Below are positions 5,191 through 62,990 of a stretch of 64,000 nt of DNA, piece by piece. This DNA is from an uncultured Alphaproteobacteria bacterium. Lineage in GTDB: Bacteria; Pseudomonadota; Alphaproteobacteria; Rhizobiales; Methyloligellaceae. The stretch covers positions 612 through 64,611 of the forward strand of contig CAVVDW010000021.1 in NCBI GenBank assembly GCA_963747175.1, given 5' to 3'. Position 1 is the stretch's first letter, and every line of letters begins with the position of its first letter. The notes under the pieces are model-generated. The model worked only from the letters and a program-made list of their open reading frames with translations. It was not told the origin of the DNA and did no database searches. The position numbers and the translations under genes are program-made.

Positions 5191-5282
5191 GCATTAACCA
5201 AGCCTCGCAGAAAGTCAAGCTGAAGGGCAAAAGCCCTAGGAGAAAAGCGTTTTGGGGCAACATACAGCAGCAGGAAAGTGGT

Positions 5283-5348
5283 GAAACGCAGGACTTAAAA
5301 TCCTGAGGCCGCAAGGCCGTGAGGGTTCGACTCCCTCCGTCCGCACCA
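5283..5348 (+). pseudogene. tRNA-Leu(TAA) 3' fragment, att scar copy 1
   Basis: CAGGA-CTTAAAA-TCCTG anticodon arm, long variable arm GGCC-GCAA-GGCC, GAGGG-TTCGACT-CCCTC T arm, CGTCCGC-A-CCA end; no 5' acceptor strand GCGGACG. Confidence 0.9.
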
Positions 5349-6565: not shown

Positions 6566-6647
6566 TGATCAGCTTTAAATTCCCACTGCACAGCTTTTGC
6601 CGAGGTGGACTAGTCCGCGGGTGGCGCGTGATTCAAGGTAACTAAAA

Positions 6648-6710
6648 ACGCACGACTTAAAATCCTGAGGGGGAAACCCCGTCCGGGTTCGACTCCCGGC
6701 GTCCGCACCA
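6648..6710 (+). pseudogene. Divergent tRNA-Leu(TAA) 3' fragment, att scar copy 2
   Basis: CACGA-CTTAAAA-TCCTG, variable arm GGGG-GAAA-CCCC or similar, T arm CCGGG-TTCGACT-CCCGG, CGTCCGCACCA. Confidence 0.85.
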
Positions 6711-6915: not shown

Positions 6916-6940
6916 GGAACCTTCCGTCAGACGACAAGTT
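6916..6940 (+). promoter_or_regulatory. EcfG/sigmaT-type promoter candidate
   Basis: GGAAC-N16-AGTT; SD AGGAGG at 6958 and ATG at 6969. Confidence 0.55.
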
Positions 6941-6968
6941 GGCCCCGTATAGCCAACAGGAGGAAATC

Positions 6969-7133
6969 ATGAGGGCCATCGTTGCTGTCCTCTTCGCCCT
7001 TGCTCTCGGGACCGCATTTTCAGCGCCCGGCTTTGCAGCCGACCCGACCCAGGCAAAGACCAAGGTCGAGTGCCAGAGGGCTGGTGGAATGTGGGACGTC
7101 AAGACGAACTCATGCCTTCGTGGCATGGCCTAG
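6969..7133 (+). CDS. 54-aa secreted two-Cys miniprotein
   Basis: AGGAGG SD; signal peptide MRAIVAVLFALALGTAFSAPGFA; mature part with C...GGMWD...C. Confidence 0.75.
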   Translation: MRAIVAVLFALALGTAFSAPGFAADPTQAKTKVECQRAGGMWDVKTNSCLRGMA

Positions 7134-7229
7134 CCCGGCGAGGGTTGATCGCGCCGCTCGGGGCACTACCTAACCGGCAGCGATGATATTACCCCCATCG
7201 CGAGGTCGCTTCCTCCCTGTGGCGACCGG

Positions 7230-7267
7230 AGAGCCCCGCGCCAGTCCACCGCGTTCGGGGCTCTTTC
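7230..7267 (+). terminator. Hairpin terminator candidate
   Basis: AGAGCCCCG ... CGGGGCTCT followed by TT. Confidence 0.45.
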
Positions 7268-7282
7268 CTAGTGACCTCGTCG

Positions 7283-7308
7283 GGAACTCAGTGCGGGCGG
7301 CCGACGTT
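7283..7308 (+). promoter_or_regulatory. EcfG/sigmaT-type promoter candidate
   Basis: GGAAC-N17-CGTT. Confidence 0.6.
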
Positions 7309-7314
7309 GAGCGC

Positions 7315-7520
7315 TAGCCCTAGCCAATCCAACCCACCGCTAGGGTATCCTGCAACGGCCCGGACCCATGACCCCGGGCCGTTCCCATGTGGGCAATGCC
7401 ACAGTCAGGCCCTCGCGTGTCGCTACAATATGCACACAGCCCAGCTGCCAGGGTCGTCGAGCAGACCCGAGGCGCGAGTTGTGGGGAAGCCCCGAAGCGA
7501 CACCTCCGGGGCTTCTTCCC
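7315..7520 (+). ncRNA. Candidate structured small RNA
   Basis: Lies between an EcfG-type promoter and a terminator-like hairpin; at least five stems; no convincing ORF. Confidence 0.4.
7486..7520 (+). terminator. Hairpin terminator candidate
   Basis: GAAGCCCCG ... CGGGGCTTC followed by TTCCC. Confidence 0.45.
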
Positions 7521-7531
7521 TGTCGGTGTTG

Positions 7532-7556
7532 GGAACTCACCGCGGGGAAGGCCGTT
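7532..7556 (+). promoter_or_regulatory. EcfG/sigmaT-type promoter candidate, leaderless transcript
   Basis: GGAAC-N16-CGTT, 8 nt before ATG 7565. Confidence 0.6.
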
Positions 7557-7564
7557 CCCTGAAC

Positions 7565-7765
7565 ATGCGTTCCACGCCGCAACAATGCCGAGAACATGCC
7601 GACCACTGTCGCAAGATGGCAGAGGACGCGCCGCCTGCGCTGGCACGTGAGTTTGAGAGCCTAGCCGCGACGTGGTTGCGCTTAGCAGGCGAGCTGGAAC
7701 GCGCAGAGGCGTTCCGCCCGGACGTTCTTCCCAACGTTATCCCGCTGGAGCGAGCCCGACGCTAG
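7565..7765 (+). CDS. Small helical hypothetical protein
   Basis: MRSTPQQCREHADHCRKMAE...FESLAATWLRLAGELE, a pattern common in Hyphomicrobiales small proteins. Confidence 0.7.
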   Translation: MRSTPQQCREHADHCRKMAEDAPPALAREFESLAATWLRLAGELERAEAFRPDVLPNVIPLERARR

Positions 7766-8053
7766 GCGGCTTCAGGCAGGCGCTCGATCTCGCTCCAGTG
7801 GTTCCCGCGTTGGCGGCTGGCTTCTTTGGCAATCACGCTCGGGGTGTTGTCCGTGGCGCGGGCCTGGACTGTAGATGGAGTGGGGCTAGTGTGGGGGGCA
7901 CTGGGCTCGGCATCGGTCGTGGCCAATTGTACGAAAACACCCCTAATGGCTGGCTCTTAGTCGCGGGCGATTCTTACACGAACTCAGAGTAAGGGCGGGT
8001 AACTGATCACCCCGCCTAACGCTGGAACTGAACGAATGCACCGCGTGGGTCGA

Positions 8054-8096
8054 AGGCCGCAAGGCCGCGAGGGTTCGACTCCCTCCGTCCGCACCA
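8054..8096 (+). pseudogene. tRNA-Leu 3' fragment, att scar copy 3
   Basis: AGGCCGCAAGGCCGCGAGGGTTCGACTCCCTCCGTCCGCACCA, one mismatch to copy 1. Confidence 0.9.
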
Positions 8097-8285
8097 ATCG
8101 CGAAGGCCGCCCTTACCGGTCGTCCTCTCGATGCCCCGTCGTGCACGGCAATGCCGACGCCTCATGACGGGGGATTAATCGCTGCGCGGGCATAAATCGC
8201 CGTGCGGCGGTAAACCGCTTTGTCATGGACCCGTCAGGGGGTAGGGCTATGACAATTCGTCTTTGTCATTACCAGGAGACCTCCC

Positions 8286-14050: not shown

Positions 14051-14293
14051 TGACGCACTCCTTCACTTGCACTCATGACGGGCTGAACCAAGGATAGCCG
14101 ACAGGCGTTGGCCCCCGTAGCATTTTCGGTAAGAGCTTAAGCCACTCCACATCGTGATTTTTATCAAGGCGTGACAAGTGGCCTCAGGGATGGGATTCGT
14201 TCTGCAAGCTGGCCTTTTCCGCGAGCGCACCCCATCTTGTTGCCGAGAGCGCAGGTTTTCGCGCTTTTCCCGCCCATTCTTCGAGGAGAACCC

Positions 14294-14827
14294 ATGAGTA
14301 AGGAAACGACTGTCAAGGAGCGCCGCAAGGCGCCGCTGACCACGCCGACCGACCTCGGCGACAATGCCCGCAAGGACATCACCGGCGCGCTGAACGCGCT
14401 GCTGGCCGACGTGTTCGCGCTCTATCTCAAGACCAAGAACTTCCATTGGCATGTGAGCGGGCCACACTTCCGCGACTATCATTTGCTCCTCGACGAGCAG
14501 GCCGACCAGATCTTCGCCATCACCGACGACATTGCCGAGCGGGTGCGCAAGGTGGGCGGCATCACGTTGCATTCGATCGGCAATATCGCGCGGCTCCAGC
14601 GCATCCCGGACAACGATGCCGACTATGTCGATCCCCTCGATATGCTGGCCGAGCTCAGGTCCGACAACCAGGCGCTGATCGCAAGCATGCGCGAGGCGCA
14701 TGATCTTTGCGACGAGGAGAACGACGTGGCGACCACGAGCCTGCTCGAAGTGTGGATCGATCAGGCCGAGCGGCGCGTGTGGTTCCTCTATGAGGCGAGC
14801 CGCAGGGGCGATCCGACCGGTCACTAG
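14294..14827 (+). CDS. dps: Dps-family DNA starvation/stationary phase protein
   Basis: KTKNFHWHVSGPHFRDYHLLLDEQ...DDIAER; SD GAGGAG. Confidence 0.92.
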   Translation: MSKETTVKERRKAPLTTPTDLGDNARKDITGALNALLADVFALYLKTKNFHWHVSGPHFRDYHLLLDEQADQIFAITDDIAERVRKVGGITLHSIGNIARLQRIPDNDADYVDPLDMLAELRSDNQALIASMREAHDLCDEENDVATTSLLEVWIDQAERRVWFLYEASRRGDPTGH

Positions 14828-23182: not shown

Positions 23183-23289
23183 GCCGCTGGGGCGTTTTGC
23201 CTGCATTCGCTGTCCCTTGCGTCGGCGTCAACGACGGGACAGAATGTCGCAGTCACGGGACGGAAGCTCTCGGACTGGAGGAAACGCTA

Positions 23290-23721
23290 ATGAACGTCGC
23301 TGCAATTCTGAAGCAGAAGGGCAGGGAGGTTTTCACCACCACGCCCGATACGACGCTGCTCGACATCACCAAGCTGCTCGGCCTGCACGGCATCGGCTGC
23401 GTGGTCATCACCGGGATCGAGGGAAAGGTCGTCGGCATCGTCAGCGAGCGGGACGTCGTCCGCGAAATCGCGCGAGCCGGATCGAAGGTCCTCAAGGAGC
23501 CCGTCGAGACCTGCATGACCAAGACCGTGGTGACATGCCGTGAGGCGGACACTATCGACCGGATCATGGCGGAGATGACGGCCCACCGTTTCCGGCACAT
23601 GCCCGTGGTAGAGCGCGGACGGCTCAGCGGGATCGTCTCGATCGGCGATGTGGTGAGGATGCGGATCGCTGAAGCGGAGATGGAAGCCGCGGCGATGCGG
23701 GAATATATCGCCACGGGCTGA
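23290..23721 (+). CDS. CBS-pair protein
   Basis: GIVSERDVVR, RFRHMPV, GIVSIGDVV. Confidence 0.92.
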   Translation: MNVAAILKQKGREVFTTTPDTTLLDITKLLGLHGIGCVVITGIEGKVVGIVSERDVVREIARAGSKVLKEPVETCMTKTVVTCREADTIDRIMAEMTAHRFRHMPVVERGRLSGIVSIGDVVRMRIAEAEMEAAAMREYIATG

Positions 23722-23794
23722 TCGGTGCTGATCGACGTCTTTGTCTCTGACGCATGATCTTGTCCGAAAAGTCGCAACTTTTCGGGATCATGCG

Positions 23795-24724
23795 TTAGGC
23801 GGCCAGCATCCTGAGCGCGTGCTTGATCTCCTCGATCTGCCGTTCGGCGGCCTTGGCTCCTTGCGCGATCGCTTCGCTCCCACGGTGGAAGTCGAACAGC
23901 CCGATGTCTCCAAGCCTTGGGCTGATGGCGATGTCTGGCGGATCGCCGGCGAGGCGTGAGCGGGCGATCCGGTCCTGCGTGATGTTCACGGCGTCCATCA
24001 TTACCGCCGACATGCCCGGCGCGCCGCTTCTGCCGAAGATTTGCCGGTGCAAGAGGTGGACCGCCGCACGGCCGTTCGAGCCGAGCAGCTCATGGCCCTC
24101 GGACGCCGATGGCGGCTCCGCCAAAGCCTCATGATCGTGGATCACGCCGCCCTTGCTGAAGACGTCGTTAGAGAGATTGACGGCGATGACGATGCGGGCG
24201 CCGAGCGCGCGGCAGACCGACACGGGAATAGGGTTGACGAGCGCGCCGTCGATCAGCCACCGGCCGTTGATTTGCACGGGACGGAAAATGCCCGGGAGCG
24301 CGAACGAGGCTTTGAGCGCATCCACCAGGCTTCCTTTGTTGAGCCAGACCTCGTGACCGGTGCCGAGCTCGGTCGCAACCGCGATGAACCTTCGGTCGAG
24401 CTTCTCGATCTGGAATTCTTGCAAATGATGCTCGAGCCGGGCGCTCAAGCGCTGCCCAGTGATCAGGCCTGAGCCTGCGAAATTGACGTCGAGAAAGCCG
24501 AAGACGCGGCGGCGTGTAAGCGCGTTCGCGAACTCCTCAAGCGCGTCGAGCCTCTTCGTGATGTAGCAGGCGCCGGCCACCGCGCCGATCGAGGTGCCGG
24601 CCACGATATCGGGCTCGAGCCCGGCCTCGACCAGGGTCTTGAGCACGCCGATATGGGCCCAGCCGCGCGCGGCGCCGCCGCCAAGCGCGATCCCAAGTTT
24701 CGGTCTGCGGGTATCACTCATCAC
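23795..24724 (-). CDS. Patatin-like phospholipase, RssA/NTE type
   Basis: GGGAARGWAHIG, GTSIG, DGALVNP. Confidence 0.92.
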   Translation of the reverse strand: MMSDTRRPKLGIALGGGAARGWAHIGVLKTLVEAGLEPDIVAGTSIGAVAGACYITKRLDALEEFANALTRRRVFGFLDVNFAGSGLITGQRLSARLEHHLQEFQIEKLDRRFIAVATELGTGHEVWLNKGSLVDALKASFALPGIFRPVQINGRWLIDGALVNPIPVSVCRALGARIVIAVNLSNDVFSKGGVIHDHEALAEPPSASEGHELLGSNGRAAVHLLHRQIFGRSGAPGMSAVMMDAVNITQDRIARSRLAGDPPDIAISPRLGDIGLFDFHRGSEAIAQGAKAAERQIEEIKHALRMLAA

Positions 24725-52526: not shown

Positions 52527-52825
52527 CCCTTTATGTACCCTTTGTCAGCCAGGCCCTGGAGCAAGTCCAGCACGTCGGCGCGGATCACGTCGGCCGGTGC
52601 CGAATATTCCTTGGCCAGAGCCTCGACGATTTCCTCTACGCTTCTCTTGCCGTCGCAGAGCTTGAGCACCGCAACGGCGGTCTGGTCCGGTGTGAGCACG
52701 CGCTCCGGCGCCAGCAACACCCACCGGTCGCGCCCCGCATCGAAGCGGAGCTTGAGATAGGTGGGCAAATGGGGCCGCGTCTCACGACCGACAACGAGAC
52801 GCTCCGGCAATGCGGCGTCGTTCAT
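52523..52825 (-). CDS. pqqD: PqqA-binding chaperone
   Basis: [14 protein letters not shown]...D..A..VL.LCDG. Confidence 0.95.
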
Positions 52826-53559
52826 CACGCTTTGCCCGGAACGAAGGCGCCGGGCGGAATCATGCCCGGATCGACATAAGCGAGATAAAGCGCGTCGAGC
52901 TGCGCCCACAGCACGTTGCATTTGAATCTGAGCGCATCCAGCGCGCCTTGCTGCGCCTCAGGCGTGCGCGCGTTGCGCTTCACGTATTGCAGGGCGAAAT
53001 CGGCATCATCAGGTGCCTGGGTGAGGCGGCGCTTGAAATACGCCATCACCTCGTCGCTGATGAAGTCGTAGCTCTCGAGCATGCCCGAGATGCGCTCCTT
53101 GTGGATCTTCGGCGCGAACAGCTCGGTGAGCGAGGAGGCGACGGCCTCGACCAGGGTCTTCTCCCGCACGAAATTGACATAGGCCTCGACGGCGAAGCGC
53201 GTCTCGGGCAGCGCGCCCTTCATGGAGATGACGTAGTCGCGGTCGAGCCCGAGCCCGTCGGTCAACACCAGCCAGCGCTCGATGCCGCCTTCTTCCTCGC
53301 CATAGCCGTCATGATCCATGATGCGATGAATCCAGTCGCGGCGGAGCTGGCGGTCATGGCAGCGGCTCATCAGGGCCGCGTCCTTGCGCGGCACGGCGGA
53401 CTGATAGCAATAGCGGTTCAGAGCCCAGGCCTGAACCTGGCCCTTGTTGAGCTTCCCGCCATGCAGCAGCTTATGAAACGGATGCTTGTCGTGATAGCGC
53501 TCGGCGCCAATGGCGCGAAGCTCTTGCTCCAGCTCCTCGGGACTCATGATCTTGGTCAC
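52825..53559 (-). CDS. pqqC: PQQ synthase
   Basis: RYH.KHPFH, WALNRY.YQ..VPRKDA, DHDG, SSLTELFAP.IH..R, FKC..LW..LD. Confidence 0.97.
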   Translation of the reverse strand: MTKIMSPEELEQELRAIGAERYHDKHPFHKLLHGGKLNKGQVQAWALNRYCYQSAVPRKDAALMSRCHDRQLRRDWIHRIMDHDGYGEEEGGIERWLVLTDGLGLDRDYVISMKGALPETRFAVEAYVNFVREKTLVEAVASSLTELFAPKIHKERISGMLESYDFISDEVMAYFKRRLTQAPDDADFALQYVKRNARTPEAQQGALDALRFKCNVLWAQLDALYLAYVDPGMIPPGAFVPGKA

Positions 53560-53813
53560 GGCGTTTACCTCTTGTCCTACCCGAGTGGCGATCAGGCACC
53601 TCCCATGGCGGTTCGTGGATGCGACCGCCTTGATGGGCGTCAACTGCTTGGCAGGCCTCTACAATAACTGAAGACCTTGGCAACGGAAACTTGGGGCGTA
53701 ATCCGACGAATGCAATATAGGGCGGCGCGATGAGAGTTGCATGAGCAGCCCATGAACACTGCCTCTATGCCTCATTAAGAAATTCTGAAGGGGAAGTGAG
53801 CGCCAAGAATCAC

Positions 53814-62620: not shown

Positions 62621-62737
62621 ACTCGTAGTTCAAAAACTGCGTCTGAACGCTCGCATGATGCGGATTTCCCCGCGAGCGGCACCTGAGGAGTACAGTATCA
62701 CGGCAATATGGCGCGCCCTAGCGTCGGCCGCCGGCGC

Positions 62738-62843
62738 AAAGAAAAAGCCCGGCGGGATGGAGACCGGGCTTTCTCTTTTCGCTGACCTGAGCGGACCATC
62801 GGCTGGTGCTGGGTGGGAAGGCGGGCGCCGATGGCCAAAGGAC
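62738..62843 (-). ncRNA. Candidate EcfG-dependent small RNA with C-rich loops
   Basis: Upstream GGAAC-N17-AGTT (62875-62850); hairpin GCCATCGGC/GCCGATGGT; terminator AAGCCCGGT/GCCGGGCTT plus U-tract. Confidence 0.55.
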
Positions 62844-62990
62844 TCGTTGAACTCGGCCCCATGCCCGAAAGTTCCCCCTACAGGAATTGGACTCTTAGGC
62901 TCTCGCCGACAGACTTGGGCTCATTGTTGCCGCGATGGAAAAATACTGTCTCGCCGCCCTCGATTCTGAGATCTCCATAGAGCAGGCAAA

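Follow-up and report, generated by a model that had tools for sequence, protein, structure and literature searches.

Positions 6916-7765 of the window, by which we mean the whole 64-kb stretch of DNA that was analysed, contain three consecutive units, every one of which has its own GGAAC-type promoter and is transcribed in soils. Along the locus the features follow one another in the order P1, ORF1, hairpin T1, P2, the candidate RNA, T2, P3 and ORF3 (Table 1). The cassette that contains the three units is bracketed by tRNA-Leu 3' scars ending in CGTCCGCACCA at 6710 and 8096.

Table 1. Coordinates of the features discussed, given as positions of the window.
Feature	Position	Strand	Remarks
tRNA-Leu(TAA) 3' scars ending in CGTCCGCACCA	5276-5348, 6617-6710, 8036-8097		Bracket small cassettes
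P1, EcfG-like promoter GGAAC-N16-AGTT (relaxed form)	6916-6940	+	5' of ORF1; possible source of read-through
ORF1, 54-aa signal-peptide (secreted) miniprotein	6969-7133	+	Upstream unit
T1, terminator-like hairpin AGAGCCCCG...CGGGGCTCT, then TTCC	7228-7268	+	3' of ORF1; conserved in L087
P2, strict EcfG/sigmaT-type motif GGAAC-N17-CGTT	7283-7308	+	Directly 5' of the candidate
Candidate non-coding RNA	7311-7518	+	About 205 nt, 5' end within 7300-7316; drawn from fold z and RNA contigs
Hairpin 1	7317-7346	+	8-bp stem; 14-nt G-free loop CAAUCCAACCCACC at 7325-7338; putative seed
Hairpin 2	7354-7383	+	Perfect 10-bp stem, 10-nt loop
Hairpin 3	7388-7403	+	TGTGG 7388-7392 / CCACA 7399-7403; dispensable
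3' domain	7412-7478	+	CTCGCG 7412-7417 / CGCGAG 7473-7478; structure not conserved
T2, intrinsic-terminator-like hairpin	7483-7518	+	12 + 2 bp, U-poor tail
P3, strict EcfG-type motif GGAAC-N16-CGTT	7532-7556	+	249 nt downstream of P2, 3' of T2, 5' of ORF3
ORF3, 66-aa protein	7565-7765	+	Downstream unit
Second EcfG-motif sRNA candidate	62736-62845 (locus 62736-62875)	-	About 108 nt, GGAAC-N18-GTT, fold z = -4.55

The EcfG/sigmaT promoter has been defined as GGAAC and CGTT separated by a spacer of 15-17 nt (Tien et al. 2018, PMC5869019). A scan for strict GGAAC-N15-18-CGTT returned two matches in the 64-kb window, both on the + strand and bracketing the candidate, where 1.6 would be expected by chance in 128 kb. 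The upstream match, P2, ends 3-8 nt ahead of the first stem. We compared all three motifs with those of L087, the sole locus in which we found an orthologue of the candidate. P1 shares 24 of its 25 bases with that locus, and P2 corresponds there to GGAAC-N16-TGTT, in which GGAAC is kept and the -10 element is altered. At P3 the -35 and -10 elements are kept and five spacer bases differ, a pattern of conservation that reads as a good promoter signature. The mRNA of ORF3 is probably leaderless.

Between P2 and P3, the sequence-only reading had placed a multi-hairpin non-coding RNA of about 200 nt that starts right after an EcfG-type -10 element and ends in a terminator-like hairpin. Every stem that it had listed is found in the sequence, and all of them recur in the minimum free energy fold of the + strand of 7315-7520, which has an energy of -93.1 kcal/mol and a z-score of -4.2 (none of 200 dinucleotide shuffles folded as well). 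The - strand of the candidate reaches a fold z of only -1.8. When each helix was compared separately with 500 dinucleotide shuffles, hairpin 1 (core arms CCCTAGC 7318-7324 and GCTAGGG 7339-7345; z = -2.5, 6/500), hairpin 2 (arms AACGGCCCGG 7354-7363 and CCGGGCCGTT 7374-7383; z = -3.8, 1/500) and T2 (z = -2.95, 4/500) beat the shuffles, whereas hairpin 3 (56/500) and the domain closed by CTCGCG/CGCGAG (35/500) were no better than chance. The latter domain encloses the GGGTC 7451-7455 / GACCC 7464-7468 pairing and a conserved A/U-rich block, GTCGCTACAATATGCAC (7419-7435). The observation of stems and motif is confirmed, and three of the five helices exceed chance; as a multi-hairpin architecture, the proposal holds for hairpins 1 and 2 and the terminator but not for hairpin 3 and the 3' domain. 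The tail of T2 is poor in U (UUCUUCC), and a simple terminator scanner made no call at this hairpin.

Four studies, of soil, mine drainage and sediment, contribute the seven metatranscriptome runs in which the region is present. RNA contigs cover 6962-7518 and 7589-7841, the candidate being covered over 7300-7518, and across the metatranscriptome runs none lies over 7519-7588. Individual contigs extend over 7311-7501 (X28), 7302-7518 (X25), 7300-7434 (X30) and 6978-7508 (X26), and their 3' ends at 7501, 7503, 7508 and 7518 all fall within T2. RNA of the region thus exists, in contigs that end in the terminator, and the terminator-like character assigned to the last hairpin is borne out by RNA that stops inside 7483-7518 and is followed by a gap up to 7589. 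Since the contigs carry no strand information, the + strand was deduced from the orientation of the terminator, the promoter motifs and the asymmetry of the fold.

P16 soil runs, together with X29 for the first 20 kb, were mapped as contigs over 60 kb of the window. Only about five places are consistently detected in these 60 kb: the candidate locus, the gene of a CBS-pair protein, dps, the 5' region of pqqC and a few fragments. Coverage of the CBS-pair protein gene extends over 23264-23895 (the ORF ends at 23721), that of the Dps-like gene (14171-14827) over 14311-14611, and that of the PqqC-like gene (52825-53643, - strand) over its 5' end plus leader, 53471-53713. RNA coverage is so uneven over the 60 kb that DNA contamination is excluded, and with so few places detected the locus is among the most abundant in-situ transcripts of the organism, together with typical stress genes. 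The co-detected genes point to a methylotroph-like physiology under stress or in stationary phase in situ.

The homologues of the flanking genes form nine clusters for ORF1 (67-96% identity) and only three for ORF3 among 5.8 billion proteins. L087, with 96% ORF1 identity, has the same cassette with both scars and the same bdh context. The candidate is absent from L001 and L002, the loci of the two diverged ORF3 clusters, and from the ORF1 homologue loci L098-L102. In the lineage with 78% ORF1 identity (L089-L097), ORF1 is followed by about 180 nt and then by P3 and a stop-interrupted ORF3 remnant, and the candidate is again absent. A covariance model of 7311-7410, run on the window and 29 related loci, matched the window itself at 131 bits and L087 at 57 bits and nothing else, with no paralogue in either set. 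The exact 30-mer of hairpin 2 had no match in genome contigs (the common allele G7376T would break such a match), the block pattern had none in JGI metagenome contigs or IMG/VR, and plasmids gave no blastn match. The search for homologues proposed with the original reading therefore yields one diverged orthologue, in which the pairing is kept in part. Many metagenomes from soil, rhizosphere and sediment contain the lineage itself at about 99% identity; as far as these searches reach, the element is confined to a narrow lineage.

Nucleotide identity between the window and L087 is 97% for ORF1, 97% for T2, 93.5% for ORF3, 83% for the spacer from ORF1 to P2 and 79% for the candidate body, which diverges about as fast as third codon positions do (~10% divergence at the latter). 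The L087 orthologue nevertheless folds well (z = -5.1). Hairpin 2 carries three substitutions there, all of which keep the pairing: C7356G and G7381C compensate each other (C-G to G-C), and with C7359T the pair becomes G-U. A rough post-hoc estimate puts the probability of the double change at p ~0.04, and the support from covariation is anecdotal because only one or two diverged orthologues exist. The stem of hairpin 1 is GCCCUAGC / GCUAGGGU in the window and UGGCGCA / UGCGCCA in L087, where it closes the loop UCGUCCCCAACCAACC (12/500 shuffles). The X44 lineage, found in sediment DNA, has a stem of the L087 type around a loop motif of the window type (CCTGGCGCA-TCGTCCCCAACCCACC-TGCGC). Two unrelated stems thus keep CCAACC(C/A)ACC in the exposed loop of the predicted folds of three lineages. 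T2 is the same in 35 of 36 bases, and the single change turns a G-U pair into G-C. Conservation of the architecture accordingly applies to hairpins 1 and 2 and the terminator but not to the 3' domain: in L087, C7414G breaks its closing stem and CCCUGGCGG/CCGCCAGGG is formed instead, and in the X44 lineage it has lost 9 nt, including the GGGTC arm.

The blocks 7382-7406, 7419-7435 and 7468-7515 are unchanged between the window and L087, where about 10% change would be expected. Within the population the locus is mosaic through recombination, and this mosaicism could in part lie behind the unchanged blocks. Population alleles that break pairs are G7376T (the commonest, giving a C-U mismatch in hairpin 2), G7389A (X32; in hairpin 3) and G7317C; C7333T is an allele in the loop.

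We read 7311-7518 (+) as the gene, or gene segment, of a structured non-coding regulatory RNA of about 205 nt that is induced in the alphaproteobacterial general stress response (GSR) and has a small GSR-type gene on either side, in a cassette at a tRNA-Leu integration site of an uncultured soil bacterium resembling Methyloceanibacter; we give this reading a probability of about 0.5. Where the RNA starts bears directly on it. Contig 5' ends at 7300 (X30), 7302 (X25) and 7311 (X28) cluster at P2, and contigs at P1 begin at 6962-6965; at P1 and P3 contigs set in 15 nt or more downstream of where transcription is expected to start, and at P2 at or upstream of that point. The candidate might instead be a long structured 3' UTR, or read-through tail, of an ORF1 mRNA that starts at P1, runs past T1 and stops at T2. 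The P2 motif would then be inactive or minor, and the segment would function in cis, on mRNA stability, or as a tail that is processed to a 3'-UTR-derived sRNA. We consider this the main alternative, less probable than a dedicated RNA gene. T1 is leaky, judging by the RNA contigs that cross it and P2 from upstream in at least four runs (X26, 6978-7508; X27 and X31, from 7188; X25, 7154-7316), and a contig of X29 starts at 7281, ahead of P2. In X28, however, the locus is resolved into three separate contigs, one per unit (6965-7237, 7311-7501 and 7628-7841), with a gap at 7238-7310, and T1 is built like T2, which terminates well. Depth over the candidate is about half (~50-60%) of that over ORF1, which is what one would see if T1 stopped only part of the transcripts. 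Chance alone is unlikely to put a strict EcfG motif at precisely this position, yet its -10 element is altered in L087, and the variant in X31, in which a 6-nt deletion in the spacer of P2 destroys the spacing, is still transcribed. The ORF1 homologues at 67-78% identity (L089-L102) lack such a tail, which argues that the ORF1 mRNA does not inherently include it. Part of the candidate RNA certainly comes from P1 by read-through, and much of that RNA may be read-through from ORF1; an independent start at P2 is plausible. For the proposed start right after an EcfG-type -10 element the evidence is mixed: the strict motif lies directly upstream, but contigs cross it from ORF1 and the spacer-deletion variant still gives RNA. 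Taken as a whole, the sequence-only interpretation is partly supported.

The evolutionary comparison weighs on a different alternative, which we regard as unlikely: a transcribed but functionless remnant, such as a decayed cassette that once held a small gene between promoter and terminator, with GC-rich hairpins that are not under selection. The near-neutral divergence of the body, the frequent indels, the common pair-breaking alleles and the unconserved 3' domain are all consistent with decay, but decay does not readily account for a pairing in hairpin 2 that is kept by a double change, for a hairpin 1 that is rebuilt around one loop motif in three lineages, or for substitution-free blocks. 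Neither the closest genomes nor the other lineages with ORF1 or ORF3 carry the element, and no paralogue of it turned up in the window or the 29 related loci, which also fits a remnant; on the other hand, its expression in situ is high, and we found no remnant of an ORF with Pfam similarity. A small protein is far less probable still. It would be encoded by one of the overlapping ORFs (7368-7562 or 7387-7650) or by the one frame that is open over the whole region into ORF3 (7271-7765), and gene callers do extend ORF3 to 94 aa (P0001). Such an extended ORF would run across the terminator hairpin, and no start codon has a Shine-Dalgarno sequence ahead of it. Every frame is shifted by an 8-nt deletion allele (7386 and 7388-7394), which occurs in contigs of four RNA runs and removes the 5' arm of hairpin 3, and by indels of +5, -9 and -2 nt relative to L087. 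The substitutions relative to L087 show no codon periodicity in the candidate (6/7/10 at the three codon positions, compared with 1/0/4 in ORF1 and 4/1/8 in ORF3), and none of the ORFs overlapping the candidate has a Pfam match. The region is non-coding, as the sequence-only reading had judged, and relatives conserve no ORF in place of the pairing, which is kept in hairpin 2.

The candidate matches no Rfam family. A search of the whole window with Rfam 15 gave no match at the gathering threshold, and a permissive search within 7300-7520 gave only IhtA, whose score of 18.6 bits (threshold 76, E = 1.9) is noise. ARAGORN found no tRNA or tmRNA over the window. We rejected a permuted tmRNA, for which there is no model match, and a riboswitch or attenuator, given that no model matches, P3 lies 3' of the terminator and no RNA reads through into ORF3. 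The tRNA-like pieces at 6617-6709 and 8036-8097 were also rejected as parts of the RNA; they are tRNA-Leu scars, and ARAGORN calls no tRNA there.

For the stress-induced regulatory RNA that we prefer, three elements would form the functional core: the 5' hairpin, whose C-rich loop is predicted to be exposed, hairpin 2 with its stable stem, and T2. Release of EcfG would lead to transcription from P2, with an additional supply from P1 by read-through across the leaky T1. Like GsrN, the RNA would act in trans: its exposed 5' loop, which is free of G (CCAACCCACC), would pair with G-rich tracts resembling GGUGGGUUGG in mRNA leaders, and this pairing would change the translation or stability of the target mRNAs. 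Hairpin 2 and the terminator would provide stability and possibly a platform for Hfq, and the 3' domain would be a fast-evolving spacer. When the complement of the loop was sought in the window, matches were no more frequent than by chance and gave no target.

GsrN of Caulobacter crescentus is transcribed from an EcfG-type promoter and pairs through a C-rich 5' loop with G-tracts in mRNA leaders, for example that of katG (PMC5869019). Homologues of GsrN were found by BLASTn in Caulobacteraceae only, and the same study predicted 'GsrN-like' sRNAs under sigmaEcfG control for Rhizobiaceae and Bradyrhizobiaceae (Tien et al. 2018, PMC5869019). The candidate shares with GsrN a GGAAC/CGTT EcfG-type promoter motif (a match at the level of the motif), intergenic transcription, seen here in the seven runs of four studies, and a 5' hairpin with a predicted exposed C-rich loop, which has equivalents in L087 and the X44 lineage and in which sequence conservation peaks. 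It differs from GsrN in its length (about 205 nt as opposed to about 100 nt), in its loop, which is CCAACCCACC instead of a run of six C, and in its position within a tRNA-Leu island cassette. Sequence homology is not apparent either, judging by the restriction of GsrN to Caulobacteraceae in BLASTn and by the lack of an Rfam match. Because the lengths differ and homology is not demonstrable, we describe the candidate as an RNA that would work like GsrN, not as a member of that family by descent; it is probably a lineage-restricted sRNA, new but ordinary. Its location in a tRNA-Leu cassette adjoining bdh argues against proximity to the ecfG-nepR-phyR locus, from which C. crescentus gsrN is likewise distal.

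The same genome holds a second sRNA candidate with an EcfG motif (Table 1), which resembles the present RNA in having a GGAAC-N-GTT promoter, a large C-rich 5' loop with CCCACC and a strong terminator. The loop of its 5' hairpin contains CCUUCCCACCCAGCACC. It differs in being only about 108 nt long, with two hairpins, and has no similarity to the present RNA in sequence or by covariance model; it was undetected in four soil metatranscriptomes that contain the present RNA. The exposure of CCCACC in the predicted folds of both candidates hints at a shared seed. The arrangement at P2 also recalls MicL of E. coli, described where it is cited in PMC8103513 as a sigmaE-dependent sRNA that is embedded in a 3' UTR and has its own ECF promoter. 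On that account, both RNAs have an ECF-sigma promoter downstream of another gene on the same strand and a terminator common to the RNA and to read-through from the upstream gene, and both would be a non-coding arm of a stress regulon. In contrast to the candidate, whose promoter follows a terminator-like hairpin, MicL is there described as having its promoter inside a coding region and as being processed to a shorter RNA; the two are not homologous.

By the BDH protein encoded downstream, the closest relatives of the organism are uncultured Alphaproteobacteria and a Methyloceanibacter MAG (94, 89 and 84% identity), and in their genomes (L007-L009) one tRNA-Leu adjoins bdh, without the cassette. 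In a bolder reading of this setting, a small cassette array without an integrase at tRNA-Leu would carry the candidate as cargo. Modules consisting of an EcfG promoter, a small gene or sRNA and a terminator would wire horizontally acquired functions into the general stress regulon of the host, the sRNA would be a mobile post-transcriptional regulator that retunes the stress response, and its very strong expression in situ, in soils around the world, would be a sign of ecological importance. We consider this extended scenario improbable. If the narrower interpretation as a stress-induced regulatory RNA is correct, the locus encodes a general-stress-response sRNA of an uncultured, globally distributed soil relative of methylotrophs, first seen through its expression in situ and not in culture. 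It would extend the GsrN idea, an EcfG promoter combined with an exposed C-rich loop, to Methyloceanibacter-like Hyphomicrobiales, and would indicate that small islands linked to tRNA genes can carry regulators of this kind. In practical terms the gain would be modest, in that one lineage-restricted example is added to a known class and no new question is opened; the unusual aspects are the small tRNA-Leu cassette as carrier and the conspicuous expression in soils.

Two further observations concern the surroundings of ORF3. On L001, a metagenome contig with a 76% homologue of ORF3, positions 1010-1140 contain a GGAAC-N17-GTT motif, after which come some 90 nt that include a C-rich stretch and a strong terminator (GAGAAGCCCG...CGGGCTTCTC); the element may be an unrelated EcfG-driven sRNA downstream of ORF3. 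In the population of the window itself, DNA contigs of the runs X36 and X37 match the window up to 7519 and then continue with L087-type sequence (TTGCCGCAGGTCTTCGGAACTCGCGG...), and the identity of the window to L087 jumps from about 80% to nearly 100% after ~7640.
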